This document shows positions 5,588 to 21,318 of a stretch of 64,000 nucleotides of DNA, piece by piece (within the stretch, counting starts at the first letter, position 1; every line of letters begins with the position of its first letter). The translations under genes and the position numbers were made by a program. The DNA comes from a virus. The notes under the pieces were generated by a model that saw nothing but the letters and a program-made list of their open reading frames with translations, did not search any database and was not told the DNA's origin. The stretch covers positions 14,596 to 78,595 of the IMG/VR virus record IMGVR_UViG_3300024520_000049; one strand, 5' to 3'.

Positions 5588-7897
5588 GTGCCACTTCAAA
5601 CTACAATGGGCCAATTACTGGTAAACGAAGCGCTGCCGCCGCAGTACCAGGATCATAACCGCCAACTTATCGGGGGCGCGCTTGATGACCTTCTCGGCCA
5701 GATTGGGCGCGAGAACCCAGAGCTCTACCGCGACATCTCCCACAAACTCATGGAGCTGGGGCGGCACACCGCCTACGAGCAAGGCACCACCATCAGCCTC
5801 TCTGACCTGCAAGCTCCGTCTGAACTTCGCAAGGAAGTCTTCGCACATGTGGATAAGCAGGAAGCAGTTATAGACAAGTCAAACCTCTCCCCGGCCGAAA
5901 AGGCCCAAGCCCGTGCGGAGGTTTATGGTCAAGCGCAGAAGCTACTCACCGATGAGACATATGCACATGCGCAGAAATCTGGCAATCCCCTGGCGCTTCA
6001 GGTACTCTCCAAAGCGCGTGGTAACCCGACGCAGCTTGCGGCCATGCTCTCTACCCCTGGCACGTTCCAGGACACCAAAGGGAACACGATCCCCATCTTT
6101 GTCCGCCGGAGCTATGCTGAAGGGCTGACGCCAGCCGAGTATTATGCCGCAACCTTCGGTGCGCGGCGTGGAGTTGTCAGCACAAAATTCTGCCTCGCAG
6201 AGGGTTCCGAAGTTTTGATGGCGGATTATTCGGTAAAATGTATCGAGGATGTGAATGCTGGTGATACGGTTTTTACGGTCGACGACAACATGAAAATGGT
6301 GCCCACAAAAGTGGTAGAGACGTTCAACAATGGGCTGCGGGAGTGTTGGGATTTTAAGTTCAGACAGGGACGATCACGCAGCGAGTTTGTGTCTATTAGG
6401 GCAACAGAAGACCATAAAGCGGTTATGTCCAGGAAAAAGGGTAAGAACCGTGTTAGCGAGAAAGAACCCCTTAGCAAGGCCCACCGTGGCCGCCGGGCGA
6501 TACACCTGGCCGCCGGGGAGCACTCGACCACTGGCAATAGGTTCCACTCCAAAACGTACCTGGGAGCCGTGCATACTTACGATCTGGAAGTGGCACACGA
6601 AAGTCATAACTTCGTTTTAGCGAACATGGCAGTAGTGTCAAATTCTACACGCGACGCTGGTGATTTCGGCAAGCAGCTCAATGTTGCCGCAGCAGACCTG
6701 ATTGTCACCGAGGCCGACTGCGGGACTGTTAACGGTATTCCTGTCGGGATCGATGATAACGACACAGTGGGCGCTATCCTGGCACGCGGGTCTGGCGGGT
6801 TTAAGCTGGGAGCCCCTGTAGGCCCCAAGATGCTGAAGTCATTGAAGCAGAACAAGGTGGACAAGATTTTAGTCCGCTCACCAATCACCTGCCAAGCCCA
6901 AGGCGGTGTGTGTAAGCACTGTGTCGGCTTGCGGGAGAACGGTAAGTTCCCCGAACTCAGGTCCGCTGTGGGGATCCAAGCATCCTCGGCCCTGGCTGAG
7001 CGCATTGCCCAAGGGAGCTTGAATGTAAAACACTCTGGCGGCCAATCCGCCAAGGGTGAAGCCACCTACGCGGGTTTCAACATCATCAATCAAATCGGCC
7101 AGATACCCTCAGCTTTCCGACACAAAGCAATCTTATCGGAGCAGGACGGTTTGGTCACCAAGATTGAGCCTGCGCCACAGGGCGGCACCAACGTGTACAT
7201 CGGCGAGGAGCTGCACTACGTGGAGCCGGAGCAGGCAGTGACTGTTAAGGAGGGGGACGACCTCGAAGCTGGTGATCAGCTGGCCACGGGTATTGTCAAC
7301 CCGGCAGAAGTCGTGCGCCATAAAGGTATTGGCGAAGGTCGACGATATTTCGCGGAACGGTTGACCCAGGCGTTCAAGGACAGTAAGTTAAAGGCCAACA
7401 GGCGTAACACTGAATTGATAGCACGAGCGGTGATAGACCATGTGGATGTCGAAGAACCTTCCGGTCTGGGTAATTTTTTGCCAGGTGATGTGGCCTCGTA
7501 CAATAATCTGGCATACAGCTATAAGCCCCGAGCCGACGCAGGTGCGTTTCGGCCGACTAAGGCCGTGGGTCAGTATTTGGAGCAGCCCGCACTGCACTAC
7601 ACCATTGGGACTCGAGTAACAAAGAAGATTGCTAAAGAGCTTGAAGGATTTGGAGTAAATACGGTTACCGCACACAGCCAGCAGCCTGGGTTCACCCCTC
7701 GGATGATACGCCTGCGCGCGGTACCTCATTACGGGAAGGATTGGATGGCCAAGTTGCACGGCAGCTATTTACAGACTAACTTGCTTAAGGACGTGCAAGA
7801 GGGTTCCCAATCTAATATTCATGGAACACACCCGGTACCTGGGATCGCGTACGGCGCGGAATTCGGCGAGAGCAAGAAAAATAAGGTAACATTCTGA
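5588..7897 (+). CDS. rpoC: DNA-directed RNA polymerase beta' subunit, C-terminal half, intein-containing
   Basis: TTMGQLLVNEALP (RpoC TTxGxxxxN), SYAEGLTPAEYYAATFGARRGV (bridge helix), DLIVTEADCGT, RSPITC...GVCKHCVG (beta' Zn site II), ALAERIAQGSLNVKHSGG (trigger loop); AAGGAG RBS and GTG start. Confidence 0.93.
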   Translation: MPLQTTMGQLLVNEALPPQYQDHNRQLIGGALDDLLGQIGRENPELYRDISHKLMELGRHTAYEQGTTISLSDLQAPSELRKEVFAHVDKQEAVIDKSNLSPAEKAQARAEVYGQAQKLLTDETYAHAQKSGNPLALQVLSKARGNPTQLAAMLSTPGTFQDTKGNTIPIFVRRSYAEGLTPAEYYAATFGARRGVVSTKFCLAEGSEVLMADYSVKCIEDVNAGDTVFTVDDNMKMVPTKVVETFNNGLRECWDFKFRQGRSRSEFVSIRATEDHKAVMSRKKGKNRVSEKEPLSKAHRGRRAIHLAAGEHSTTGNRFHSKTYLGAVHTYDLEVAHESHNFVLANMAVVSNSTRDAGDFGKQLNVAAADLIVTEADCGTVNGIPVGIDDNDTVGAILARGSGGFKLGAPVGPKMLKSLKQNKVDKILVRSPITCQAQGGVCKHCVGLRENGKFPELRSAVGIQASSALAERIAQGSLNVKHSGGQSAKGEATYAGFNIINQIGQIPSAFRHKAILSEQDGLVTKIEPAPQGGTNVYIGEELHYVEPEQAVTVKEGDDLEAGDQLATGIVNPAEVVRHKGIGEGRRYFAERLTQAFKDSKLKANRRNTELIARAVIDHVDVEEPSGLGNFLPGDVASYNNLAYSYKPRADAGAFRPTKAVGQYLEQPALHYTIGTRVTKKIAKELEGFGVNTVTAHSQQPGFTPRMIRLRAVPHYGKDWMAKLHGSYLQTNLLKDVQEGSQSNIHGTHPVPGIAYGAEFGESKKNKVTF
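6191..6643 (+). mobile_element. Mini-intein (151 aa, no homing endonuclease) in RNAP beta' bridge helix
   Basis: Begins CLAEGSEVLMADYS..IEDV..GD (block A), has ATEDH (block B TxxH) and YDLEV..HNFVLAN (block F), and ends VVSN before +1 Ser. Removal restores a continuous bridge helix STKF|STRDAGDFGKQL. Confidence 0.93.
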
Positions 7898-8733
7898 TGA
7901 GCTATTTGACAGGGAAGTACTTGAAGAAGCAAGCCGCCTTGGAAGTTGTTCAACCAGCAGCAAAGGCTGGCTCAAAAGGCCTCCTAAAACTTCTGACCGC
8001 ACTTGGCCTGGTTGGCGGCGCTGCTGGGTCGATACCCGCAGCTGGTGCTTTGGGTGCGGGTGAAGATAAGCGGATTGGTGGCGCAACTTTAGGGACCCTT
8101 GCAGCGGCCCCCGGAGCTCTGGCCGGCGGCATTGGCGGCGGGGTAGCTGGTGAGAAGCTTCTTTATCCGTTGCTCGAGAAATTAAAGATGCTCCGCGGTA
8201 TCTCCCCCAGCGCTCCTGGCGTGCTCGGAGCTTTAGGTGGATTAGGCGCCGGCGCGCTGGGCGCCTCCTATATGGCAGGTGGTGCACTTCGGGATAAAGA
8301 GTCCTCGTACGCAGAAGGCTTTATCGCCAAGTGTGCTGAGCACGGGGTGGATTTGGTGGCTGCAACTAAAATGGCGCAAGAAGTAGCCGGTGCCGCCGCA
8401 GGCGGACTAGCTGGAGCAGCACTCGGCGGAGGGGTTTTGGGTGCGAATGAACTAGGCCGCCTAGCTTTAATGAACATACACAATGACACTTTTGCACGCA
8501 CTGTAGCGGACCCCTTCAGCGATGCCGGGCACGTTCTACGCGGAGCTGCCCGTAAGGTTACGCCACCAACCACGGACACAGAGATGCTGCACAAATTGAT
8601 GGCCGTTATGCGATATCTTAAGAAAAACCCGCTTAAGGTAGTAGGTGCACCAACCGCCGCGTTGGCTGGGGCCGGCGCTGTCGGTGGTTACGGCCTTAAG
8701 CAGTTAATTAACAGTTTGACAGACAAAGACTAG
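7897..8733 (+). CDS. Glycine-zipper-rich putative head/ejection protein carrying YAEGFIAKCAEHGVD tag
   Basis: Several GxxxG hydrophobic tracts; KKQAA near N-terminus; TGATG coupling to rpoC C-half. Confidence 0.65.
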   Translation: MSYLTGKYLKKQAALEVVQPAAKAGSKGLLKLLTALGLVGGAAGSIPAAGALGAGEDKRIGGATLGTLAAAPGALAGGIGGGVAGEKLLYPLLEKLKMLRGISPSAPGVLGALGGLGAGALGASYMAGGALRDKESSYAEGFIAKCAEHGVDLVAATKMAQEVAGAAAGGLAGAALGGGVLGANELGRLALMNIHNDTFARTVADPFSDAGHVLRGAARKVTPPTTDTEMLHKLMAVMRYLKKNPLKVVGAPTAALAGAGAVGGYGLKQLINSLTDKD

Positions 8734-8742
8734 GAGTAAGAC

Positions 8743-11088
8743 ATGACAAAGCTGAAGGACCTACTCGCTGAGCCGGAATACTCCGCGGTAAAACTATCCG
8801 CCGAAACTCCGGACAACCAGCAGGTCGAACGGGACTTCGGCCGGCTGGCTTACGCATTTTTGAAAGACCGCGCAACCCCGCTCGTACCCTACTTGGTAGG
8901 TTTTGAAGTTGTGGAGCAGGAACCTGATGGCTCTCGCGCCGTGGGGATCTTCGGCTTTCGCATCTCCAGCTCGTTCTACTACGTGCCGGTGTTCTTTCTG
9001 AACAACCAGATCAAGGGCATGGACATGCTGTACTCTAAAGAGGAGAAGCATTTTGTCCCGCTCCGCGAGCCGTGGGTGAACCATATCCTTAACCGCAAGA
9101 CGATCGAGCTGGGCCAACCAGCTTCCGGTGTGGTCAAGAAGGATTTCAGCGTGCCTGACTACACCTTCCTCTCCCGCCCACCGCTGGGCGGTAGCTTGAA
9201 GCTGTCTGAAGCAGGGCGCGGGATCTATGAAGTGTGGAATACCATGCAGAAAGAAGCCGTGAACATGCTCAACAATGATCCTGAGTTTGGCAAAGCTCTC
9301 GCCGGCGCGGTCACTACGATGGCCAAGCAGGCCTCACCCAGGGCTTCCGGCCAGACACGTTTAACGACGTATCTGGAGAACCAAGGCGGTCCAGACGCCG
9401 TGGCGTCGCTGCTCGATAAGATCGGGTCTGACATGGTGTTTATGAAAGCCGCCAACTGCTTCTATGACTACCACGATCTGATGATCACAGAGTTCGCTGC
9501 ATCCTTGGCGCCGAAGACCGCAGCCTCTAAGATTAAGGTTGTGACGGAGACTGATGGTGATGGCCCCATCGCCTGCTGTGACGAGGAAGAGAAGCGCGAG
9601 ATTGTGCGCGACGGGTTCACGATTGTGGACAGTCGTGATGAGGAGGAGAAGTCGGAAGTTTATGATATCGACTATCTCACTTGTGTGGGCAATCCAAACG
9701 TCACAGGCAAGTACGATCTTATTCTGGCCAGCGGGATCACCACTCCGGTATTTGTCGTCAATATCCCCTACGGGACTGACAGCCAAGGCATGACTTTGGT
9801 CGTGCACCCAGATACCGGCCGGTACTTTACCGCGGCTAACCGAATTGTTTATGTCCGAGACGGGATCAAGGAAAAGGCTGATAATGATCAGCTGTACACC
9901 GACGACCGCACGGTGGATGTTGAGAAGATGGACGTCGGCGAACACTATATCTTGGTGGATGAGAAGGGTTGCGCAAGTCTACCGTTTCGCGTCGCTGCCT
10001 CGGTTAGTGAAGACAATGACATCGTCCGCATTAAAGCTGACTGGAAAGACAGCATCACTTACGAGGATCGCGACACCACGCCCGGCTACGAGAAGATGAC
10101 AGGCCCTGACTACAAGGCCTGCTACTCCATCGACTCATATAGCGATAGCTACCTAATTATAACTGACCGCCGTGGTGAGCTTAAGAAGAGTGGCAACAAC
10201 GTGGTTGTACCGACGCAGCAGTGGAAGGCGTACAAGCTGGAGGTGCCAGATGACTATCAAGATCGTCAGGCGCAGAAGGAAGCCTTCCGTCCCGCCTCAT
10301 ATGTGGATATCATCGAGTCCATGAACAAGATCGCCTTCCACAAGGTGCAGGTTGAATCTCGCGATCAGGGCGTGGCGTTCAACATCACGCTGGACGGCCT
10401 GCTTGATAAAGAAGCCATGGGCTATAAAGAAGCCACCATCACGCTGGTTGACCGATACGGCTTTCCAGTCAACAAAGCCCAGGCGGTGCTTAAGGAAGCC
10501 GCCGAAAAGCTGAAGTCTAGACGACTGGTGCTGCTTAAGTCTGCTCAGCAGGTAGTTATGCCCCAGGAGCCGCCGCAGTACATTGGGTTCGATCAAGAGC
10601 TTGGAGTACCAGTGCAGCCCTCGCAGCAAGACTATGTGTCTGGCCAGACCGTCGGTATGCCCAAGCCGGAGCCCGGTGGCCCTGGCTCTGGTATCAATAT
10701 CGGCGGCGAAGGCGCACATCAACAAGCCATGGGCGGCAGTGGCGAAATGCCTGAGGACGCCACGCAGTTGGCAATGGAAGCCGCCCAAGCTGGACAGCAG
10801 CAAGTATTTGATCACGCTGTCATTGGCGGGCTCAGCCGCGTTTACGACACATCCGCCACTATTGATGGCTTCATCCCTGAGCTGATGACGGCTCTGGACC
10901 GCACTGGGCGCATTCTCTTCCTCTTCTACTGGAAGAACGAAGACTTCGCTGAGCGTTACGGCGACCAGGATCTGACGGAGATGGAAGACCATATCCGTGC
11001 GGTGTTCAAGTCCCTCGGCGATCTGGTGCTGAAGCTTAAGCAGAAAACAATTGATGCTGAGGAGGCTGAATATGTCCAAGGTGGTTGA
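8743..11088 (+). CDS. Large hypothetical protein, probably virion head-associated
   Basis: 781-aa ORF with GGAG RBS; K-x-A/S motifs at apparent domain boundaries (VKLSAE, KQASP, KTAAS, LKSAQQ). Confidence 0.6.
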   Translation: MTKLKDLLAEPEYSAVKLSAETPDNQQVERDFGRLAYAFLKDRATPLVPYLVGFEVVEQEPDGSRAVGIFGFRISSSFYYVPVFFLNNQIKGMDMLYSKEEKHFVPLREPWVNHILNRKTIELGQPASGVVKKDFSVPDYTFLSRPPLGGSLKLSEAGRGIYEVWNTMQKEAVNMLNNDPEFGKALAGAVTTMAKQASPRASGQTRLTTYLENQGGPDAVASLLDKIGSDMVFMKAANCFYDYHDLMITEFAASLAPKTAASKIKVVTETDGDGPIACCDEEEKREIVRDGFTIVDSRDEEEKSEVYDIDYLTCVGNPNVTGKYDLILASGITTPVFVVNIPYGTDSQGMTLVVHPDTGRYFTAANRIVYVRDGIKEKADNDQLYTDDRTVDVEKMDVGEHYILVDEKGCASLPFRVAASVSEDNDIVRIKADWKDSITYEDRDTTPGYEKMTGPDYKACYSIDSYSDSYLIITDRRGELKKSGNNVVVPTQQWKAYKLEVPDDYQDRQAQKEAFRPASYVDIIESMNKIAFHKVQVESRDQGVAFNITLDGLLDKEAMGYKEATITLVDRYGFPVNKAQAVLKEAAEKLKSRRLVLLKSAQQVVMPQEPPQYIGFDQELGVPVQPSQQDYVSGQTVGMPKPEPGGPGSGINIGGEGAHQQAMGGSGEMPEDATQLAMEAAQAGQQQVFDHAVIGGLSRVYDTSATIDGFIPELMTALDRTGRILFLFYWKNEDFAERYGDQDLTEMEDHIRAVFKSLGDLVLKLKQKTIDAEEAEYVQGG

Positions 11089-11332
11089 GGAAGCCTACAC
11101 ACAAGGGTTCATTGACAAGTGCGCTGAGCACGGCGTCGACGCAAATGCGGCCAAAGCTTTGCTGGATAAACCAGACGAAGCGCCGCTGAAGAAGACCAAA
11201 AGCATGAGCCCAGCACAAGTGGCCAAGTATCGTGCGGAGCAGCACAAGAAGATTGATCAGCAGCGCCCTGGCGCGGGCCTGGCCGCCCGAAGTGTGCTAA
11301 AGCACATCAATTCACCAGCAGGGCACAGGTGA
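11072..11332 (+). CDS. Small basic protein with YTQGFIDKCAEHGVD tag
   Basis: ATG 11072 follows GGAGG; shares an N-terminal motif with 7897 and 11336. Confidence 0.65.
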   Translation: MSKVVEEAYTQGFIDKCAEHGVDANAAKALLDKPDEAPLKKTKSMSPAQVAKYRAEQHKKIDQQRPGAGLAARSVLKHINSPAGHR

Positions 11333-11335
11333 GCC

Positions 11336-11752
11336 GTGGATAACCCATACATACAAGGCTTCATAGAGAAGTGCGCCGAGCACAGCATCGACCCCGAAGA
11401 GCTGATTAAAGCAGCTTTCCGTGGAGATATCCTACGCCGAGCGCTGGCGGCGGTAAATCCCGCCGCAAAATTGTCCTTCGGCACGGGTAAGCTATTTCCG
11501 GCTAAAGGGACAGCTTCATACCTGGAAGGCATGTACTCCAACCCAGGCCGCTATGCCACTGAGCTGAACGCAATCGAGCACCCCGCGCTTCGCAGACCTT
11601 TCGCGAATCCTGGGCAGGCTCAAGGCGTTCGGGATCACTGGGCGGGAGTCTTAAAACAAGTGAGGGCCGCGCTCAAAGCCGACAAGCAGCCAATAGCGAG
11701 CGAAGCACTGGTGTCCAACGCCCCAGCAAACGTGGCGGGTACATGGAAATAG
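11336..11752 (+). CDS. Small protein with YIQGFIEKCAEHSID tag
   Basis: Motif directly followed by ELIKAAF (K-x-A). Confidence 0.65.
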   Translation: MDNPYIQGFIEKCAEHSIDPEELIKAAFRGDILRRALAAVNPAAKLSFGTGKLFPAKGTASYLEGMYSNPGRYATELNAIEHPALRRPFANPGQAQGVRDHWAGVLKQVRAALKADKQPIASEALVSNAPANVAGTWK

Positions 11753-12756
11753 CTGGCAATACCGTACGAACTCCCAATGAGCATTCGATGTTCTTCCAGC
11801 CCGACTGGCGCTACGCCATTGCGCGAGGAGTTGGGCAGTCTCGCACAGCCCCCACCGAGGACGGCAGCAGCCCACAAATGCGCTACTACGACTATACCCC
11901 CGATACGTGGGTGCGCCGGCAAGTTCAGTATCTGGACACTGAGGGCAATAATAAGTGTGCAAACCTCAACAAGAATTTGAAACCACACGACCCGCGCTGG
12001 GCTGTCCGCGAGGCCAATGTCACTTATCTTGGAGATGAGCCCCGGCGCGAGGAAGATGAAGAGTTCACACCGCTGCTGAAGATGCGGTTGGAAGCGCTGC
12101 TTTTGTGCACAGACTTAACTTTATCGCAGATCGCAGATTATATGAATTCAACCGTCGCAGTGATAAAGGCTTACGAGCGTTTATTCTACAACGTGCGTGA
12201 CGATAAAGGATTGATGAACGCAGCCCCATGGCTTTGTGAGTGGTTCGCAAAGGGAAATATCCCAGTCGTGAATCATGAGCAGACCAACAACTGGGACGTG
12301 TACTGGAAGGTTGTAGCTGTCGAGGGTGGTTTCAAAGCACTCCTTGCAACGTGGAACGGTACCCTGGCGCCGATCGGTGGGGAGTTCCCCGAAGTGGAGA
12401 TGGCTCAAATGATGTTCCGCGGCCTTTTCCGCCGCATGGAGCGCAACATCCGCATGGGCCACATGTCACAGAACGCCTTGTCACAAACCCTGGAGCGTTT
12501 CCAGGCGATGATTATGGATATGCGCGAGCGTGGGGTAATGTCCAAAGGTGAACGAGTTTCAGATGAAAGTATCCTGATGCGCCTGCTGGGAGCGATGGCC
12601 CCGAAAGTGGTTGTACCGTCGGCTGAGCGGGTTGCTAGTAAACAAAAAGAAGTGGAAGCCAAGATTGAGATGATGAAGCAAACAGAGCGTGGTCACGGGT
12701 CGGGTAAAGACACGTTGACGTCAATCGGAGCGCAAGTCGCTGCGGCGAAGGCTTAA
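11743..12756 (+). CDS. Hypothetical protein with possible helix-turn-helix
   Basis: LTLSQIADYMNSTVAVIKAYE resembles an HTH; helical C-terminus. Confidence 0.55.
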   Translation: MEIAGNTVRTPNEHSMFFQPDWRYAIARGVGQSRTAPTEDGSSPQMRYYDYTPDTWVRRQVQYLDTEGNNKCANLNKNLKPHDPRWAVREANVTYLGDEPRREEDEEFTPLLKMRLEALLLCTDLTLSQIADYMNSTVAVIKAYERLFYNVRDDKGLMNAAPWLCEWFAKGNIPVVNHEQTNNWDVYWKVVAVEGGFKALLATWNGTLAPIGGEFPEVEMAQMMFRGLFRRMERNIRMGHMSQNALSQTLERFQAMIMDMRERGVMSKGERVSDESILMRLLGAMAPKVVVPSAERVASKQKEVEAKIEMMKQTERGHGSGKDTLTSIGAQVAAAKA

Positions 12757-12813
12757 TGGTTTGCTTTTTATTCCCTCGGGGCTTACGTTATGCCATAGTT
12801 TTGGAGGTAACAG

Positions 12814-14196
12814 ATGTTCAAAGAACAACTGATGAACGCACTACATCAAGCTGTCGGATACCGCAATGGCGGGATGGATGACAGCGCGGCTGTGGCAAAA
12901 GTTGCTGCGGCACAAGATTTTAATAGAGATCAGACACAGCGATTGCTGGAAGCCTACAATACGGCCAAGACCGTATACTTCTTCAAAGCTGCGGAAGATC
13001 GCCGCCAAGATTTTGGCCTTGCTAATCCAGATGCGGTGTTTACCACGCTATACCCCGCAGCCCCCGCGACGAAAGAGGCCTCAAACGAGCTTCACGATTA
13101 TAGCTGCTATGACACCCCAGAGGCCAAGTATTACACAGATACCACTGTTGACGCGGCAGGTAATCGCCCAGTTGACTTCGGCAAAGCGGCTGCCGCTGAA
13201 GAGCCTACGCTCAACAATCGGTACACCAACAATCAGCAGTCCGTGCGATCGCTGAAGCAGGCTGCGTCACATTGCAAAGACTCCGCAGAGATTTGCAGCA
13301 CCAAGTACAACCTGCTGCTGCAGAAGATTGCGTCAGAGATTCGGCAAGCTGACTTTGAAGGCGTCAAGCTCGCGCAGGCTGAGCACGCCTTCTGGGAACT
13401 GTACGGCAAAGAGCTCGCTACTCCCGCAGTAGATGACCTCGTGACACATCTACCCGCTTCATATCAGCAGAAGCGCGCTGCAGACAGTGCTTATGGAACT
13501 TTGACGACGTTCGATCGCCAGTACCCTGAGATGATGGGGCAGATGAAAGAGGCGATGCAAGCACGACTCGGCTACGCGGAAATGTACGCTGCAGCTACGG
13601 TTTTTGACAAGGAGGCTGCAGCTCAGGAGGGTGAGTTCTTAAAGTCCGCAGGGCTCGCAGTAGAGCCCGCGCATGATGACTTTGATGACATGATCCCTAA
13701 GAACCTGCAGCTGGGCAAAGCAGCGCAGACATCTCTGACAAGTTGGGGTGAGCTGGGGACGCAAAAAAAAAGTCCACAGACCTCCGTACTTGATTCCATG
13801 GTCGGCGGCGTAACCAAAGGAGTTGGTCGTGCAGTTGGCGGCGCAGTTGAGCCCGCGGTACGAGAGGCTTTGGTTCCACCTAATATAGAGGGTGCAAAAA
13901 CCACCGACCGCCTGAAGAATTTACAGCGCCAGATTATCTTGGATGATCTTCTGGCCAATGACCCGGTGCTGGCTGGTGAGGACTCTCCAAAGATCCTTGC
14001 AGCTTATGAATCGCTCTGGCAGGTAGCTCCAGAGGTGTCGATGAACAAGGAAGTTGTTCGCTCGGTACTTCGCGCTGCGTCCCAGGCGGTATCAGTCAGC
14101 CCTTATGACGCGAAGTCATGGGCGGAGCTGGAGAACGAAGTTCGTAAACAGGTTGAGTTTGGCGGTAAGCCCAAAGCTAAGGCGACAGTAGTATGA
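12814..14196 (+). CDS. Putative internal head protein with K-x-A-rich N-terminal two thirds
   Basis: GGAGGT RBS; 12 of 19 lysines up to GKAAQ are K-x-A, versus 0 of 12 after it. Confidence 0.65.
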   Translation: MFKEQLMNALHQAVGYRNGGMDDSAAVAKVAAAQDFNRDQTQRLLEAYNTAKTVYFFKAAEDRRQDFGLANPDAVFTTLYPAAPATKEASNELHDYSCYDTPEAKYYTDTTVDAAGNRPVDFGKAAAAEEPTLNNRYTNNQQSVRSLKQAASHCKDSAEICSTKYNLLLQKIASEIRQADFEGVKLAQAEHAFWELYGKELATPAVDDLVTHLPASYQQKRAADSAYGTLTTFDRQYPEMMGQMKEAMQARLGYAEMYAAATVFDKEAAAQEGEFLKSAGLAVEPAHDDFDDMIPKNLQLGKAAQTSLTSWGELGTQKKSPQTSVLDSMVGGVTKGVGRAVGGAVEPAVREALVPPNIEGAKTTDRLKNLQRQIILDDLLANDPVLAGEDSPKILAAYESLWQVAPEVSMNKEVVRSVLRAASQAVSVSPYDAKSWAELENEVRKQVEFGGKPKAKATVV

Positions 14197-14909
14197 AGAT
14201 ACGGACGATCAAAAAGATTGAGAACGACGTCTTTCAGGTGATTAAGAGCACGGAAGACTTCAGTGAGGCTGACGTTCAGCTGATGGAGAAGTATGGCGAG
14301 CCCGAGGTTGATCTCGGCGGCACGTTCACAGCAAGCCCTGATTTCACCTTCCCGACCCGTCTGGAGAAGATAAAGACCGAATCCCCATTCACTCAGACAT
14401 TTGATTCACGAGATCTCGACGCGGTGGAAGTTACGACACTGACAGTCGAGGCCGCGGGCGACGCTGCAACGCTCAACAGTCTCTACTTCGACATCGACGC
14501 TGCTGACGGCAACCAATACCGCGTCTGGTTTGACGAGAATAACACGGGCACGCCACCAGCCGCCGCGGGCCGCACCCTTGTTGAGATCGACCTCCCGCTG
14601 GCTGGCACAACCACAGATACAGCCAACGCGCTGTTTGCGGCACTCGACGCGCTGTCGTCCTTCTCGGTAGTGCAAGCCACGCTGGTGCTGACTGTGACCG
14701 ACACCGCCGTTGGCCAGGTGACAGACGCTGATCAGGGCACAACGACAGCTGCGGTTGATCTCACGGTCGCCACCGCGACACAGGGCGGGTCTGCTGAAGA
14801 GAACGCGGATATCTGGAGTACTGAGATAAGCGTCCGGATCAAGGCGGCGCTGGTCGAGCTGCGTGAGAATGCAGATACCTTTACAGGTGAAGAGGTCGAG
14901 AACTGCTGA
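14193..14909 (+). CDS. Hypothetical virion protein with an inserted Thr/Ala-rich beta-type module
   Basis: Central EVTTLTV...YFDI...YRVWFD...LVEIDL...ANAL...LTVTD segment resembles modules seen in phage structural proteins. Confidence 0.55.
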   Translation: MKIRTIKKIENDVFQVIKSTEDFSEADVQLMEKYGEPEVDLGGTFTASPDFTFPTRLEKIKTESPFTQTFDSRDLDAVEVTTLTVEAAGDAATLNSLYFDIDAADGNQYRVWFDENNTGTPPAAAGRTLVEIDLPLAGTTTDTANALFAALDALSSFSVVQATLVLTVTDTAVGQVTDADQGTTTAAVDLTVATATQGGSAEENADIWSTEISVRIKAALVELRENADTFTGEEVENC

Positions 14910-15733
14910 TGGATAAGCAAGCACAGACTATGGCAGCTCTTACAGCCGCCGGCAATACATTGACAAAGTCCGCGCAAGGTGTCACTGATCAGCTCTCACA
15001 GCTCTGGTCGACACTGGGCGACAGCCAGAAGCAAGTGATCATCAACGGGCTGCTCGGCGGTGCCGTTGGCGGTGGGGCTGGTGGTATTGGCGGCGCACTC
15101 TCAGAAAACTCAACAGCTGCCGGTTCTGGGCTGATGGGCGCCTTGTTGGGCGCCCTCGCTGGCGCAGGCGGCACAGCAGGCTACAATCTCTTGTCAGGCA
15201 AGCAGCTGATGCCCGGTGAGCAGGCGGCGGAGCTGCCAGCCACGGATAAGGCCATGAACGCCCTTACCGGGGCAGCATTGAGTAACCCAGCGACTACCCT
15301 CGGAACCGCACTTGGTGCCGGTGTAGCAGCAAAGGGGTACCCGACCCGCAGCTCGTTACGCAGTAAGATTATGGAAGTTGCACAAAAGGCCAAAGGCAAC
15401 GCCGGCGCAGAGCTGGGCGCAATGTCTGGAATGGGTGGTGACGCTTCGTTTCAAGAGGCCATGCGCAAGGTTTTGGGCGAAACCCACTTCCGCCCCGGCT
15501 ACGACTTCAGGACTGGGGCAAATGCCGCCGAGCTTACTGGGGGCGGTAAGGCGCGACAGACGGTCGAGGGTGTGCGGCGAGCTATCACCGGGGCCGGCCG
15601 CTCCGGAAGTACTTTACGCCAAGCCGCGAACATAGCATCTGTCCCGCGCTCAAGACTGTCACTTGCCGCTATACCTGCTGGCGCGGGCTTGGGCTACCTC
15701 ATGGATCGTTACCTTAAAGGAGAGAGTGGCTGA
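14909..15733 (+). CDS. Glycine-zipper-rich putative head/ejection protein
   Basis: MDKQAQ..TKSAQ leader; GGAVGGGAGGIGG, GALLGALAGAGG and GAGLGYL tracts. Confidence 0.6.
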   Translation: MDKQAQTMAALTAAGNTLTKSAQGVTDQLSQLWSTLGDSQKQVIINGLLGGAVGGGAGGIGGALSENSTAAGSGLMGALLGALAGAGGTAGYNLLSGKQLMPGEQAAELPATDKAMNALTGAALSNPATTLGTALGAGVAAKGYPTRSSLRSKIMEVAQKAKGNAGAELGAMSGMGGDASFQEAMRKVLGETHFRPGYDFRTGANAAELTGGGKARQTVEGVRRAITGAGRSGSTLRQAANIASVPRSRLSLAAIPAGAGLGYLMDRYLKGESG

Positions 15734-17166
15734 TGAATGGCATGACCAAACTGATTTACTCAAACGCCTCTCCAGACGCGTTTGATTTCCGTATCCGCCT
15801 GCTAGAAGACCCGGCCCGGATGGTAAAGGCGGCCGCCGCATTTGCAGACGCTGATTACGTCAAACCTGGTATAGGTAAGGTTGGCCTACATGTCATCGCG
15901 CTGGGCGACGCCGAACGTTACGGACTCAACCGTAACGCAGACGGGTTTCCCAAAGCAGCATGTGAGAAGTACCATCATACCTTTACAAAGCATGGGCATG
16001 TGTACCAGCACCACCAGAACAAGGACCCGAAGAAGGCTCTTGGCGAAATCAAGCTTTCCGCGTATAACGAGCCCCAGGCTCGCATTGAGCTATTCCTCCA
16101 TGTGGATGAGAAGAAGGCCGAGGCTCACTTGCACAAGTTGGCAACCACAGGTGACCTACCCTACTCTATGGCGTGCCGGGTCCAGTTTGACCGCTGCACT
16201 CGCTGTAACACGTTGCGCAAATCGGCTTCTGACCCGAACCAATGTGATCATGTCAAATATGAGCTTGGCAAGATGGGTGAGGACGGTGCGGTGACAGGGA
16301 CACAGAACGATGAGCCTAAGTTCTTTGACATCAGTTTTGTAAACCGCCCAGCTGACCGTATCGCGTGGAATCTTAAAACAGCATCCGCCGACGGGATGGA
16401 CGCTATCAAGCTGGCAGCCGAAGCCGGAATTTACACACCCCAGCACCTTATGCTGGTCTCAGCGCTGGCAAACTACAAGATGGGCCTGCTGAACAAAATG
16501 GCCAAGTTTGAGCAATTGTACACTGAGTTGTCACATCGTGGAGCTCAAGGTAATAGAGAGTTGGAGCTTTGGGAGCTGCGAAAGGCTGCTGCCCACCAGA
16601 CGTTGCCCGACGCGGCAATTGAAGAGCTACGCAACTACGAACCATCTGATGCCATGACTGTGCTGGCGGCCGACCGTATTATTCTAGACCCGGTGTCGTA
16701 TGTTAAATACGCGATGGGCCTAGATTGCGGGGAGCTGGCTCCACATATGCCTGGTATCTTGGCAGGAGTCAACGGGATATTCACCAGACTCCTGAAAGAA
16801 GGAAAAGCAGCGGAAGTTTGTGGAGACTCATATTATGACGTCGATACGAACATACTTGGCCGCTATTTAGCACCGTCGCTGCAGAAGCTTGCGGCGGAGG
16901 TTCGATCTGAGTCTTCGTTTGAAGAGAAAACCGCAAGCCACCGGGCTGTGCGGGCGACAATTGAGGGCATGTCTGTGAAGATCGCAAATGTAACTCCAGA
17001 TGTCATTGAAAAATTCGATGCTGGAGTTGTAAACTGCGTGTCCGAGCGTTATGCTTCCTACAAGCTGGCTGCTGTCAGTGCGATGTCATCATTCAACCCA
17101 AACGATGATTTGGATCGTCAACTCGCTATATTAGCAGCTCAAAATATGGTTGAAAGGTTACACTAA
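15733..17166 (+). CDS. Prohead maturation protease (HK97/assemblin-like fold) with Cys-rich insert and C-terminal extension
   Basis: NRNADGF...HVYQHHQNKD (His), YSMACRVQFDRCTRC (nucleophile Ser plus CxxC), FFDISFVNRPAD (oxyanion-loop motif); lies upstream of scaffold and capsid genes. Confidence 0.8.
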   Translation: MNGMTKLIYSNASPDAFDFRIRLLEDPARMVKAAAAFADADYVKPGIGKVGLHVIALGDAERYGLNRNADGFPKAACEKYHHTFTKHGHVYQHHQNKDPKKALGEIKLSAYNEPQARIELFLHVDEKKAEAHLHKLATTGDLPYSMACRVQFDRCTRCNTLRKSASDPNQCDHVKYELGKMGEDGAVTGTQNDEPKFFDISFVNRPADRIAWNLKTASADGMDAIKLAAEAGIYTPQHLMLVSALANYKMGLLNKMAKFEQLYTELSHRGAQGNRELELWELRKAAAHQTLPDAAIEELRNYEPSDAMTVLAADRIILDPVSYVKYAMGLDCGELAPHMPGILAGVNGIFTRLLKEGKAAEVCGDSYYDVDTNILGRYLAPSLQKLAAEVRSESSFEEKTASHRAVRATIEGMSVKIANVTPDVIEKFDAGVVNCVSERYASYKLAAVSAMSSFNPNDDLDRQLAILAAQNMVERLH

Positions 17167-17181
17167 GGAGATAACACCAAA

Positions 17182-18681
17182 ATGCCAACTGTAGATCAAA
17201 TTCTTAACGACACTCGCGCGTTCGTGAAAGAGAAGCAGGCCAGCTTCCGGAAAGGCGCGGCAGAAGAAGCTCTGTCCAACCCCGGCTCGATTCCTGGCTC
17301 TGTCCATGATTCGAACGTCGACGCTTCTATGCAAAACTCTCATCCCGAAACCCAGCAGGAAATTCCCGCTGGGTCCAAAGTCCGCTCTGGCGCTACTGAC
17401 GGTGAGGACCTCGAGTCAGGTCACGCCACCAATGCCCTTGAGCCGATTCCGGGTGTAACTCAAGAACCCCTCGAATCTGCTGATGCGCTTGGTGGGAATG
17501 TGGGCTCCAGTACAGTGGGCGATCAGGCTCACGACGGTACCGCGGGCGCGCTTGGTGATGAAAGCCGCTCCACTGAGGGTACTCCAGCCACCCATAAACA
17601 TCCCGCTGCCAAGCATGCGAATGATCTGTTGTCTATGATTAGTCAGCACAATGCGCAGCAGAAAGCAGCCGCTGCCCCGGCACCCGGCACCGCGCCGGCG
17701 CCAACAAAAACTGCTGCTCCCGCCGCCCCAGCACCTGCTGCACCCACCCCAGCGCCGACAAAAGCGGCTGCTTGTGAGTGTGGCAAGGACGACTGCACGG
17801 CGTGCAACAAAGTCGCTGGCGACACAAAGCACGCTGGTGAAATTGAACTCACCCAGGATGTCCTGTCCAAGATTGCATCTGTGATCCTCAGCACCGAAGA
17901 AGGTTGGGCCTTTGCCGAAGCGCAAATGTCGAAAGCCGCTGGTGCCGACGCAGCCCGCGAGACTATTCAGTTTCTCGAGCAGCAGGCGCTGGAGGCTGAA
18001 AAGCAGGCCGCGTATGCTCAAGGGCAGACAGACGCCGACAACCTAATCAAAGCTGCTGTGTATGAAGCAGGCCGCGCTGACGCAGCGGCTGCCGCAAGCC
18101 CAGTTGCCCCACAGGCCCAGGCGGGCTCTGTTGTCAGCCAGCTCAAAGCTGCTGCTGCTCGTTACCGCCAGCAGACTCCTGCAACTAATGTTAAGGGTCT
18201 TCAAGATCTTGGACGCGAAGTTGCAGAACAGGCTGTGAAACAGGCGCAGGATCTGGCCGCCGCCCTCGGTGGCGGTGCCCCGGCCCCTGAGGTGATGCCT
18301 CCCGAAGCTGGCGGCGAAGATCTCGACGCCGCAGCTGCGGAAATGGCTGCCCCTCCAATGGAAGGTGGTGGTGAAGAAGACATCAGCCCTGAAGAACTGG
18401 AACAGGCTCTCTCAATGATGGCCCAAGAAGGTACCATCGGCCCAGAGGACGTCCAGGAGATCTTGGCGTATCTGGAACAAGCTGGCGGTGCTCCCGAAAT
18501 GGGTGGTGCCGAAATGGGTGGTGCCGAAATGGGTGCTCCAGCCCCTCCGCCCCCAGCACCCGCACCTGCCGCAGAAGGCGGGGGCGACGAAGCCGCAGAA
18601 GATGAATCTGGGATGGAAGCCTACGCAAGCGCTAACCCGCTTGTCCAAGCTATCCGCCGGGTCCAAGCTAAGAACAAGTAA
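17182..18681 (+). CDS. Probable capsid scaffolding protein
   Basis: Acidic Ala/Pro/Glu-rich, largely disordered or helical; between protease and MCP; strong AAGGAG RBS; 14 of 21 lysines are K-x-A. Confidence 0.65.
   Translation: MPTVDQILNDTRAFVKEKQASFRKGAAEEALSNPGSIPGSVHDSNVDASMQNSHPETQQEIPAGSKVRSGATDGEDLESGHATNALEPIPGVTQEPLESADALGGNVGSSTVGDQAHDGTAGALGDESRSTEGTPATHKHPAAKHANDLLSMISQHNAQQKAAAAPAPGTAPAPTKTAAPAAPAPAAPTPAPTKAAACECGKDDCTACNKVAGDTKHAGEIELTQDVLSKIASVILSTEEGWAFAEAQMSKAAGADAARETIQFLEQQALEAEKQAAYAQGQTDADNLIKAAVYEAGRADAAAAASPVAPQAQAGSVVSQLKAAAARYRQQTPATNVKGLQDLGREVAEQAVKQAQDLAAALGGGAPAPEVMPPEAGGEDLDAAAAEMAAPPMEGGGEEDISPEELEQALSMMAQEGTIGPEDVQEILAYLEQAGGAPEMGGAEMGGAEMGAPAPPPPAPAPAAEGGGDEAAEDESGMEAYASANPLVQAIRRVQAKNK
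18494..18538 (+). repeat. 15-nt tandem repeat x3 (CCGAAATGGGTGGTG) encoding EMGGA
   Basis: Directly visible; third copy slightly degenerate. Confidence 0.9.
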
Positions 18682-18691
18682 GGAGCCCATC

Positions 18692-19060
18692 ATGCCAGAA
18701 GCAGTTAAAACAGACGAAATCATTGAGAAGGCCGCCGAGTACGTAGCTCAAACGCAGCCCCTCCTTGATAAGCACGCCTCTGAGAAGCGGGCTTTTGACA
18801 CTCAACTCCAGCGCACTGCTGGGGTTCTAGCAGACCGTGGAATGATCCGTCGCGACAAGATCACCGACTTTGTTGATAAGGTTGCAGCAGATCCTCGTAA
18901 CGGTTTGCTTTTTATCGAGAAGATGGCTCACCTGGTTGGCGCTGACAACCTTGGAGCCCCTTCAGAAATCAAACAGGCTTCAGTGGCAGATGCTACTGAT
19001 CCTTTCGTAAGAGCGTTTTGTCCGGAGCTCATTCCTTCGGATAATGGGCTCGTTGACTAA
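18692..19060 (+). CDS. Small helical scaffold-like protein
   Basis: ATG 18692 follows AAGGAG; 6 of 8 lysines are K-x-A. Confidence 0.65.
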   Translation: MPEAVKTDEIIEKAAEYVAQTQPLLDKHASEKRAFDTQLQRTAGVLADRGMIRRDKITDFVDKVAADPRNGLLFIEKMAHLVGADNLGAPSEIKQASVADATDPFVRAFCPELIPSDNGLVD

Positions 19061-19077
19061 AAAAAGGAGATAAAAAC

Positions 19078-19611
19078 ATGCCTCAGGGACATTTCAACGT
19101 ACTGAAGGGCGCGTACCCTACTCTGCAACAGCTCGATGAGTCGTTGCCCGTAGCGTCTACAGTTACCGGCGTGGTTCGCGGTTCTTGCGTACGTGCTGCC
19201 GACGATGGCGGAACTCGTAGCTGGTTTATTACAGCTTCAGATGCCACTAATCAAGGCGCAGCTAACACGCCTGGCCCGCTCATCTATTTCTCACTCCAGG
19301 ATCAGGGCCAGCCTGACGTGGACATGGCCGGTGTTTTGACCGCCATCCCATGCAGCATGCCCAACGAGATCGAAACCGACCAGTATGCTGCTGGTGGCAC
19401 GTTCCCGATCGGTGGCTATGTTATGGCCGGCGCGGACGGGAAACTGGAAGATCACACAGATGATTTGACCGCTATTGGTCAGGTCACCCGTGCGCCGTAT
19501 ATCCGGTGGGCAAATGACGCCATCGCAGTAACTGGTAAGCGTACCGGTAACCGCATCAACGTCATCGCACTCTGGACTATGTACATTCCAAACCTATCCA
19601 CCGCGCCTTAA
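19078..19611 (+). CDS. Putative capsid decoration/cement protein
   Basis: 177-aa beta-rich protein directly upstream of MCP, strong AAGGAG RBS; ETDQY...G.L pattern. Confidence 0.55.
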   Translation: MPQGHFNVLKGAYPTLQQLDESLPVASTVTGVVRGSCVRAADDGGTRSWFITASDATNQGAANTPGPLIYFSLQDQGQPDVDMAGVLTAIPCSMPNEIETDQYAAGGTFPIGGYVMAGADGKLEDHTDDLTAIGQVTRAPYIRWANDAIAVTGKRTGNRINVIALWTMYIPNLSTAP

Positions 19612-19673
19612 TCCACCTCTTAATTGAGATGATTCCAAGGTTCAACGGATAATATATTAAGGAGAGCATTAAC

Positions 19674-20663
19674 ATGCCCGACGTACAAAATGCACCCGGA
19701 GTTGCTCCATCAGTACCTACCGGCGTTATGAATCAGCGTATCCTCGAAAGTCTCGAGCGCGGTGAAACCAAGAAAGCTCAGGACGCGTCTACCCAGTTTA
19801 CGCGCACTCAGCTTCGTGAAGATTCCTTCGCGTATCAAATCTTGCCGCCCGAACAGGCTACCGATGACATGCTCGATAAGAGCTTGACCAACGACCTGCC
19901 TCAGATCATCTGGGAACTGGAGCCTGACAGCCCCGGTGCGAAGTGGATTCCGCTTCAGACCATTCCAGAAGGCGAGTACATCCAAGGTTCCAAGTACCTC
20001 ATCCCAATGGCCCGCATCGTTACTCCCAAGTACACGAAGGACATTGATGAGTTGCGCACCTACCGGATGGATCTCCGCAAGGTTCTTACTGACAACAGTA
20101 TCAAAGACGGCCTGGCCGAGTACGATGGCAAGTTCATCGAGACGGTCAACAGCATTGTCGAAGATACGACTGGTGGTGTGGGCACTCCCCAGACCTTTAC
20201 TGGTAAGATCCAGTGGCGCACGTTCGCTGGTGGCTTGAGCCGCGAAAACTTGGCCGAAGCCAAGAAGATGATGCCTTCTGGCTCTACCTTCGCCGGTTTC
20301 GAAGACAAGTTCCGCCTCCGTAACCACGTCATGCTGATGAACGACGTGACTGCTCAGGAATTCCTGAAGTACGAACGTGAAGAAGCTGGTGGCGATCTCT
20401 CAGAAGAAATGTTCCGCAATGGTCTGACCATGTCGAAGATTTTTGGCCTGAAGACGATCTTCACCATCAAGGGCGGTCTTGTTCCTGACAATACCGTTTA
20501 CTTCTTCGCAGCACCTGAGTTCCTCGGTAAGGCGTTCTACCTTACTGACTGGACCATGTACCTGAAGAAAGAAGCATACTTCATTGAGTGCTTCTCTTAC
20601 TGGCTCGGTGGTTTCGCACTGGGTAACGTCGCTGGCGTTGCTCGCGCGGACTTCACGCCGTAA
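19674..20663 (+). CDS. Major capsid protein (HK97-like fold)
   Basis: 329 aa; TRTQLREDSFAYQILPP, RIVTPKYTKDIDELRTYRMDLRKVLTDNSIKDGLAEYDGKFI; strong RBS, followed by a terminator; position after protease, scaffold and decoration genes. Confidence 0.8.
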   Translation: MPDVQNAPGVAPSVPTGVMNQRILESLERGETKKAQDASTQFTRTQLREDSFAYQILPPEQATDDMLDKSLTNDLPQIIWELEPDSPGAKWIPLQTIPEGEYIQGSKYLIPMARIVTPKYTKDIDELRTYRMDLRKVLTDNSIKDGLAEYDGKFIETVNSIVEDTTGGVGTPQTFTGKIQWRTFAGGLSRENLAEAKKMMPSGSTFAGFEDKFRLRNHVMLMNDVTAQEFLKYEREEAGGDLSEEMFRNGLTMSKIFGLKTIFTIKGGLVPDNTVYFFAAPEFLGKAFYLTDWTMYLKKEAYFIECFSYWLGGFALGNVAGVARADFTP

Positions 20664-20698
20664 GGTATGGACACAGCAGCATTGTTGTGATACATTCA

Positions 20699-20738
20699 GG
20701 GTGTCTGGGTAAGATTTACTCAGGCACCCATTTTTTTT
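20699..20738 (+). terminator. Rho-independent terminator after MCP
   Basis: GGGTGTCTGGGT / ACTCAGGCACCC stem followed by T8. Confidence 0.9.
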
Positions 20739-20754
20739 CGTAAAGGAGACTCAA

Positions 20755-21318
20755 ATGGACCAGGTACTCGGATTCGCGCCAGACACAAACTGGCTGGAAG
20801 GCTTCGCCAAAGCAGCAGAGGACGCTGGCATTTGCGGAGAACAAGCTGTTGCAGAGCTTCTCAAAGCTGCAAGCCGCATCAAGCTGATGCAAGAAGATCC
20901 AAATTTCACTGCCGGCTATAACGCAGAGCTGGAGAAGAGTGCGCAAGCTGGCGGTATCGCCGGCGCGCTGTCTAAGCTAAAAGCACCAGGCCTCGTCGGT
21001 GCTGGTGCCTTGGGCGCAGGAGCAGGCTACGGTATTTACGATTACCTCAAGCGCCGCTGGGGCCGGAACCTGGAAGACCAGGAAATGACACGTTGGCATG
21101 AAGCGCTCGCCGACAGCGGGCTGCCTACCTGGCAGAAGAACCTTCTCAGTCGCGATCGTTTAGGTCAGGAGCACACCAAGCACCGTCAAGCAGGCTCTGC
21201 ATTCCGTAACTTCGGAGGCGGGGGCGGTCATCGTCACGGCGGAGGTGGCGGCTACGGCACTCGCCCGTACGATCACGATTCTTACTATACCCCATGGTGG
21301 CAACGCAGGCGGAACTAG
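20755..21318 (+). CDS. Glycine-zipper protein with cleavable-looking leader and Gly/His/Arg-rich tail
   Basis: WLEGFAKAAEDAG..LKAAS..ELEKSAQ leader, GLVGAGALGAGAGYG hydrophobic tract, basic aromatic C-terminus. Confidence 0.6.
   Translation: MDQVLGFAPDTNWLEGFAKAAEDAGICGEQAVAELLKAASRIKLMQEDPNFTAGYNAELEKSAQAGGIAGALSKLKAPGLVGAGALGAGAGYGIYDYLKRRWGRNLEDQEMTRWHEALADSGLPTWQKNLLSRDRLGQEHTKHRQAGSAFRNFGGGGGHRHGGGGGYGTRPYDHDSYYTPWWQRRRN

Follow-up and report, generated by a model that had tools for sequence, protein, structure and literature searches.

A conserved K-x-A motif in the head proteins of an IMG/VR phage as a probable recognition code of its prohead protease

By what sequence rule might a phage mark the proteins that are trimmed or destroyed as its head matures? 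The question is raised by a window of 64,000 nucleotides (bases 14596-78595 of the 190,498-bp, or 190.5 kb, IMG/VR virus record IMGVR_UViG_3300024520_000049). The genes of this window lie nearly all on the + strand, and a head module placed after the gene for the beta' subunit of RNA polymerase (RNAP) encodes several proteins in which lysine is often followed two positions later by alanine (K-x-A). An earlier, sequence-only reading of the window proposed that a protease encoded in this module by open reading frame (ORF) 15733 cuts after K-x-A, with a preference for Ala at P1 like that of the herpesvirus assemblins, and that the motif distinguishes scaffold or propeptide segments that are degraded from mature domains that are retained. 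Here we report that the K-x-A motif is real, specific and conserved. It is probably the recognition motif of the phage’s own prohead serine protease, the product of ORF 15733, which would read a hydrophobic residue (Phi) in the pattern Phi-x-K-x-A, followed by A, S or Q, and cut after the Ala residue.

To our knowledge, a good understanding of proteolytic head maturation is limited to enzymes with cleavage after Glu (those of T4, phiKZ and SPN3US), to HK97-type enzymes and to herpesviruses. The literature on prohead-protease motifs that we searched describes only Glu-P1 motifs for phage enzymes of the gp21/assemblin fold. We read the K-x-A code as a new specificity within this known maturation mechanism.

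Enrichment of K-x-A in the head module

Unless genome positions are specified, all coordinates given below are those of the window, on its + strand, and all expected numbers of K-x-A were corrected per protein for Ala content. The protease precursor (15733-17166; 477 amino acids) carries K-x-A at 16 of its 32 Lys residues, where 4.2 are expected (binomial p 6e-7). This protein lay outside the hand counts made in the sequence-only reading, all of which we could reproduce. They comprise 14 of 21 Lys residues (4.5 expected at 21.6% Ala) in a 499-residue scaffold-like protein (17182-18681), which is so labelled from its gene position and composition only, and 6 of 8 (p 1.6e-4) in a small protein of 122 residues (18692-19060) whose orthologues have 4-6 sites. 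In ORF 12814-14196, 12 of the 19 Lys residues within residues 1-304 belong to a K-x-A, compared with 0 of 12 in the last 156 residues, and the tail sheath (23215-27066) has 3 of 25, with 2.9 expected.

The sequence-only reading had also suggested a genome-wide, composition-corrected count. Across 273 ORFs, the three lowest p-values were those of the protease, the scaffold-like protein and ORF 79164-80219 (genome positions), and all remaining ORFs pooled correspond to expectation (271 K-x-A observed versus 249 expected). The third of these ORFs begins 569 bases past the end of the window and encodes 351 amino acids, with evenly spread K-x-A at 12 of 26 Lys residues (p 1e-5). From this pattern, it is predicted to encode a further substrate, located apart from the head module.

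An enrichment of this kind could arise as an artefact, whether from a composition rich in Ala, from the periodicity of amphipathic helices, from internal repeats or from shared ancestry. Some features of the data are of the type that such an explanation requires: the scaffold-like protein is 22% Ala, and a hydrophobic residue and an Ala spaced four apart, as in hydrophobic-x-K-x-A, would occupy one face of a helix. Repeats did produce one misleading count, in genome ORF 143580-144536, which was rejected as a false positive because its KnA count comes from a tandem repeat (ANMTPEQRERKNA units). However, the signal is confined to one pair of residues in one order. When all residue pairs at offsets 1-7 were scanned in the four richest ORFs, K..A at offset 2 reached z 8.8 (48 observed versus 14.6 expected) and the next pair z 3.5, and the K-to-A profile was flat at other offsets except for a mild excess at +3. 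None of the related patterns RxA, HxA, QxA, ExA, KxG, KxS, KxT and KxV was enriched, and E, Q and R are no substitute for K.

The same specificity is evident in three large homologue sets, which were assembled by protein searches. Ala alone is enriched at Lys +2 (4.1, 2.0 and 2.6 times expectation), Lys alone is comparably enriched at Ala -2, with Arg at 1.5 times expectation in the protease family, and the reverse order, A-x-K, equals expectation or falls short of it in these three families. Helix periodicity fails as an explanation because an amphipathic helix would be symmetric and would tolerate other polar residues. Likewise, both Lys codons and all four Ala codons appear in the motif, which therefore does not originate at the DNA level. 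Each of three possible causes, namely Ala content, helix periodicity and a DNA-level motif, was tested and rejected, and the first two are those that the sequence-only reading had named as capable of overturning its proposal. Furthermore, the flanks of the sites are unconserved and unrelated protein families carry the same motif. We consequently regard an artefact as highly improbable.

The preference extends beyond Lys and Ala. In the numbering that a cut after Ala would give, K occupies P3 and A occupies P1; P5 is preferentially L, F, M or I (2.4-4.4 times expectation), and P1' is preferentially A, S or Q (2-3.8 times expectation). The sequence-only reading had written the site as KxA↓S (the arrow marks the proposed bond); Ser is indeed among the favoured P1' residues, but the position is not strictly Ser. 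Its impression that the motif is often found near N-termini was borne out, in that a K-x-A starts within the first 40 residues in 11 of 14 head-module ORFs, compared with 41 of 259 ORFs elsewhere. The spacing of sites is also more regular than random (coefficient of variation, CV, 0.30-0.42; p <= 0.0025 by permutation). Sites are 11-52 residues apart, with a largest gap of 52, and cutting at every K-x-A would leave peptides of roughly 1-5 kDa. This regularity matches an idea advanced for phage SPN3US, wherein extra sites are proposed to yield fragments small enough for clearance from the capsid (PMC5694885).

The gene order of this region is common to the window, Salmonella phage Arash, Vibrio phage D69 and four long metagenomic contigs. 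In each, the RNAP beta' gene is followed by a gene for a protein of ~780 amino acids (615-622 in Arash and D69), more ORFs, the protease, the scaffold-like protein, two small proteins, the capsid protein and, later, the sheath. Megablast of the region against phage records gave no match, Pfam, PHROGs and PDB sequence searches with the head ORFs returned nearly nothing, and a single-sequence scan of viral contigs recovered one locus only.

K-x-A is enriched again in the syntenic head ORFs of Arash and D69, whose protease is 37% identical over the N-terminal domain. In both phages the top enriched pair is K..A at offset 2, and K..S at offset 3 and L/M..K at offset 2 are within the top five, such that the three pairs together read (L/M)-x-K-x-A-S. 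The pattern repeats gene by gene in the four metagenomic relatives, where the RNAP and tail genes are at or below expectation. No clear overall enrichment of K-x-A is seen in Rhodococcus phage E3 or Mycobacterium phage Colt, and for this reason we do not extend the full code to them. Enrichment in Bacillus phage G is weak (z 3.4). Among individual phage G proteins, gp19 (L009 7704-8606) has K-x-A at 8 of 32 Lys residues (p 0.002), with KVAS and KIAS behind its catalytic domain, and gp21 (L009 9132-10592) has K-x-A at 7 of 50. Judging from these counts, a preference for K-x-A may predate the Arash-like clade.

Location of sites in the protease, scaffold-like and capsid proteins

The protease gene adjoins the scaffold-like and capsid genes in the head module, as expected for maturation proteases of the gp21/assemblin fold. 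In tblastn searches, the N-terminal 210 residues matched the prohead protease of Rhodococcus phage E3, gp19 of phage G (31% identity to ORF 15733, E 7e-9) and proteins of Bixzunavirus (Bxz1-like) mycobacteriophages. An AlphaFold model of the ORF 15733 product (mf36a69225463) has a mean predicted local distance difference test score (pLDDT) of 80.6, and the top three Foldseek matches to this model are all T4 gp21 (probability 1.00). Comparisons with VIA-align gave T4 gp21 (Z 11.1, root-mean-square deviation 3.0, 144 residues), followed by the proteases of varicella-zoster virus (Z 8.0) and human cytomegalovirus (Z 5.7). As modelled, the N-terminal domain has the fold of T4 gp21 and the herpesvirus assemblins.

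The catalytic domain comprises approximately residues 35-214 (15835-16374). S145 and H94, its candidate catalytic residues, do not vary among 39 close and 6 distant homologues. Residues D70 and E119 are likewise invariant in the six distant proteases, as is a CxxC...CxH set (C155, C158, C171 and H173; 16195-16251, residues 155-173) located inside the catalytic domain. These residues may constitute a zinc site, in which the invariant H173 may serve as a metal ligand. We know of no zinc site in T4 gp21. Two of the protease homologues, P0061 and P0100, are ~830 amino acids long and match a Hint domain (PF13403), which suggests that an intein is inserted in the protease gene of some relatives.

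The 39 protease homologues (down to 39% identity) contain 11-20 K-x-A each, and certain sites are nearly invariant: K32xA34 (39 of 39), K215xA217 (38 of 39), K226 (33 of 34), K284 (36 of 37) and K325 (39 of 39). The first of these, K32-A-A34 (15826-15834), is the predicted N-terminal self-cleavage site and also occurs in Arash, D69 and phage G. On the other side of the catalytic domain, a linker (16375-16416) holds K215-T-A217 and K226-L-A228, the predicted cuts that would free the C-terminal domain. The sequence LKTASA, which the sequence-only reading had noted after the protease domain, corresponds to residues 214-219 and is found directly behind the fold. Residues 1-34 and 206-229 are disordered in the model (pLDDT <50 over 206-229), and K32xA34, K215xA217 and K226xA228 are all within these segments. 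Phage G (EKVAS), E3 (KQA) and Colt (KTA) all retain a K-x-A directly behind a conserved PAD motif. The remainder of the precursor is a C-terminal helical domain (16417-17166) that carries eight more K-x-A, 14-41 residues apart.

Sites in the scaffold-like protein are found at residues 18 and 24 and then at 12 positions between residues 144 and 353 (spacing CV 0.38, p 0.0014), and residues 27-143 and the acidic tail of the window’s copy are free of K-x-A. The 23 homologues of this protein (33-58% identity) have 10-16 sites each while their Lys count spans 15-47, and when pooled they carry K-x-A at 307 of 715 Lys residues, compared with 156 expected. The number of motifs, and often their position, is kept in these fast-evolving proteins. 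A stretch corresponding to residues 27-143 (17260-17610) was observed in most of the 23 homologues as ~100-120 residues in which Lys is present but never as K-x-A, with conserved sites on its flanks. This segment may be a retained internal peptide or domain.

A division into motif-rich and motif-poor parts is seen in two other head-module proteins. For ORF 12814-14196, the N-terminal 304 residues (12814-13725), with sites 11-37 residues apart, are the predicted degraded part, and the C-terminal 156 residues (13726-14196) are the predicted retained domain. This ORF and its four orthologues have K-x-A at 53 of 101 Lys residues in the first ~300 residues and at 0 of 53 in the last 140-181, figures that serve only as a contrast between N-part and C-part because the boundary was set post hoc at the last site and is partly circular, although it is consistent at residues 293-326. 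The second example is ORF 8743 (8743-11088), whose 781-residue product has ten K-x-A sites, clustered mainly in helical segments near residues 150-260 and 510-600. The 49 homologues of this protein carry K-x-A at 3.7 times expectation within two helical stretches, ~residues 150-300 and ~500-600, and at 0.49 times expectation elsewhere (34 observed versus 70 expected outside the helical modules), and the beta-rich parts carry few sites. The family is represented by 1,885 cluster representatives at E <= 0.001, and ORF 8743 has no Pfam, PHROG or PDB sequence match. We also considered a portal identity for this protein, which proved to be unsupported: neither a portal nor any other fold was matched in Foldseek PDB or VIA-align wide searches with the whole 781-residue model (m5ab159c811fb, mean pLDDT 76), from which a single-domain match could escape, and the protein atlas gave no support for a portal either.

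The major capsid protein (19674-20663; 329 amino acids) shares 28% identity (E 9e-36) with Arash gp226, which is annotated as the major capsid protein and in turn matches the phage G capsid protein gp27 (E 2e-5). More than 600 capsid-protein homologues were found at E <= 1e-10. A K-x-A is present at one N-terminal column in 121 of 121 homologues, and is followed by Gln in 110. In the window, this site is K33-K-A35 (19770-19778), where the capsid protein is predicted to be cut during maturation (ETKKA↓QDAS). Outside two conserved sites, the family has 62 K-x-A where 172 are expected, and 47 of the 62 are in one column; this depletion is no more than suggestive, given the close relatedness of the sequences. 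At the sequence level, K-x-A is below expectation in the retained parts of both the capsid protein and ORF 8743, as the proposed marking of degraded versus retained segments had predicted.

Proposed cleavage after K-x-A and its alternatives

If K-x-A is the recognition motif of the ORF 15733 protease, maturation could proceed as follows. The protease would free itself at K32xA34 and at K215xA217 / K226xA228 inside the assembled prohead. Its own C-terminal domain would be reduced to peptides of ~10-50 residues, small enough to exit the shell, as would the scaffold-like protein, ORF 18692, residues 1-304 of ORF 12814 and other segments of this kind. The capsid protein (after Ala35) and several minor head proteins would lose short N-terminal propeptides, and motif-free domains would stay intact.

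These proposed events resemble those of several known systems, as does the register of the motif. The T4 motif is L/I-x-E. That of SPN3US is A-x-E, with analogous motifs of the form small residue-x-E in phiKZ and 201phi2-1, and the enzymes of these last three phages cut after Glu and have additional copies of the motif within propeptides (PMC5694885, PMC10052503). K-x-A fits the P3/P1 register of gp21/assemblin-fold enzymes, with Ala at P1. The phiKZ-type motif is S/A/G-x-E, and the herpesvirus assemblins cut V/L/I-x-A↓S. T4 gp21 (MEROPS S77) has the same fold and is the best structural match, and it offers parallels for predicted self-processing, scaffold chopping, N-terminal propeptide removal from capsid and internal proteins, and the reading of P3 and P1. 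However, T4 cuts after Glu, whereas the motif here has a basic P3 and a small P1. Sequence identity to gp21 is only 14-16%, and ORF 15733 differs further in bearing a 250-residue C-terminal helical domain and the invariant CxxC...CxH set.

Similarly, phiKZ gp175 and SPN3US gp245 belong to systems in which many head proteins are processed, several copies of the motif occur within propeptides and the protease trims its own C-terminus (PMC5694885, PMC10052503). The present phage, like those phages, encodes a multisubunit RNA polymerase beside its head genes, but the phiKZ and SPN3US enzymes cut after Glu (A-x-E or S/A/G-x-E) and no sequence relationship to them was detected. Herpesvirus assemblin (MEROPS S21) is the second-best fold match and has Ala at P1 and Ser at P1', to which the K-x-A-S form enriched in Arash and D69 is comparable; its P3 is aliphatic whereas Lys is found here, and the proteins examined here are those of a phage rather than a herpesvirus. 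The enrichment of A, S or Q directly after K-x-A and the K..S pairs of Arash and D69 are what might be seen under the assemblin-like P1-Ala specificity that had been proposed for the protease, in which the scissile bond would follow Ala.

A sequenced cleavage site in phage G is relevant to the identity of this bond. The phage G capsid protein is reported, on the basis of N-terminal sequencing, to be shortened from 282 to 255 residues (31.2 to 28.2 kDa) (Hua et al. 2017, PMC5646251 Table 1). In the deposited phage G sequence, the cut falls after Ala27 of gp27 (VALA↓QAMANP), and this assignment reproduces masses of 31.2 and 28.17 kDa. The phage G site VALA27↓Q28 aligns within one residue of ETKKA35↓QDAS in the window and of VKEA29↓G in Arash. 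Moreover, the gp19 protease of phage G is homologous to ORF 15733 and has K-x-A-S directly behind the protease domain. By analogy, the phage G cut lends support to Ala as the P1 residue of this protease subfamily. Papers on the tail and the genome of phage G contain no cleavage data, and no cleavage motif is described for phage G in the literature that we searched.

The phage G cut also bears on the possibility that K-x-A directs proteolysis, but at another bond or by another enzyme. Cleavage could occur after Lys, as by an HK97-type or trypsin-like activity, or could be carried out by a host protease or a second phage protease. Sequence alone does not fix the scissile bond, and Lys at P1 is known in other capsid proteases; for example, HK97 gp5 is cut after Lys103. 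However, recognition by enzymes of the gp21/assemblin fold involves P3 and P1, the phage G cut follows Ala, and the A, S or Q right after Ala and the hydrophobic P5 fit an extended P5-P3-P1 register. A host enzyme is additionally disfavoured by the covariation of the motif with the protease family across Salmonella, Vibrio and the uncultured hosts of the metagenomic relatives. We consider a different bond or enzyme quite unlikely.

Alternatively, K-x-A might be selected without being cleaved, either as a docking or co-assembly signal for the shell, scaffold or protease, much as a capsid-targeting sequence would act, or as a mark for lysine modification or cross-linking. Many sites do occur within well-folded predicted helices, a shared tag (GFIxKCAEHGVD) holds the motif and resembles a targeting tag, and Arash particles contain detectable homologues of the protease and the scaffold-like protein. 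Docking would not, however, need 10-16 regularly spaced copies per protein, sites that exactly flank the catalytic domain or depletion in retained domains, and the site in the capsid protein coincides within one residue with the sequenced cleavage site of phage G. In addition, the targeting tags of T4 internal proteins end in a cleavage motif, and thus the two roles are compatible. A purely non-proteolytic function is therefore judged to be unlikely.

Several points weigh against cleavage after K-x-A by the phage protease. Many K-x-A of the protease C-terminal domain and of ORF 8743 are in confident helices (pLDDT >90), and cutting at these would require unfolding. The catalytic domain includes one site, FPKxA at K74, that E3 and Colt share, and this site may be structural, because those phages lack general enrichment. 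At the sequenced phage G site, P3 is Ala and not Lys, and in an alignment without gaps this site is shifted by one residue from that of the window. The Arash homologues of the protease and scaffold-like protein were detected in sucrose-gradient particles (365 and 283 spectra, respectively), which indicates that they were not completely removed from that preparation. The Arash virion proteome is a tryptic search without N-termini or peptide-level data, and its coverage column is unusable for cleavage. Also, the homologue-family counts are not phylogenetically independent. Finally, for this phage and its clade, the occurrence of cleavage, the bond that is cut and the enzyme that cuts it are each something that we infer. 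We nonetheless hold recognition of K-x-A by the ORF 15733 protease to be the probable explanation. Every sequence-level prediction of the original proposal that could be tested was upheld, and from these we infer its central claim, a cut after Ala by the phage protease.

A broader proposal is more tentative, and we see the considerations for and against it as close to balanced. Ala at P1 and Lys at P3 might have replaced Glu at P1 across a widespread subfamily of prohead proteases that includes the Arash-like clade, phage G and possibly Bixzunavirus. The K-x-A code might then make the full set of maturation cuts readable from sequence, including an excision of the helical modules from ORF 8743. 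If true, cutting after Ala at K-x-A would connect phage and herpesvirus specificities, and would allow propeptides, scaffolds and mature domains to be annotated by a sequence rule throughout a large clade, most of which is uncultivated. It would also constitute a warning for proteomics, in that cuts located two residues past a tryptic site are invisible to standard tryptic searches. The cultivated phages Arash and D69 make the cleavage code directly testable.

Other K-x-A proteins and a shared tag

Additional proteins of the head module carry K-x-A, mostly near their N-termini. A Gly/Ala-rich protein (14909-15733) has K3-Q-A5 and K20-S-A22, and N-terminal sites are present in four of its five orthologues. 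The 177-residue protein encoded at 19078-19611 has K10-G-A12, and three of four metagenomic orthologues have an N-terminal site at residue 8-10. Another Gly/Ala-rich protein (7897-8733) has K11-Q-A13 near its N-terminus together with an internal GFIAKCAEHGVD tag.

A tag shared by several proteins, GFIxKCAEHGVD, with the variants EGFAKAAEDAGI and LLKKAQEHGVE, contains K-x-A. Copies are found at 8308-8343, 11102-11140, 11354-11392 and 20794-20832 of the window, and in genome ORFs 79164-80219 and 187914-188396. In two small adjacent ORFs (11051-11332 and 11336-11752, together 11051-11752), the K-x-A resides within an N-terminal GFIxKCAEH tag. By analogy with the T4 targeting sequences, an N-terminal GFIxKCAEHGVD could be a capsid-targeting tag that ends in a cleavage motif. 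The copy at 20794-20832 is part of a 187-residue protein (20755-21318) that has K-x-A at residues 19, 37 and 61.

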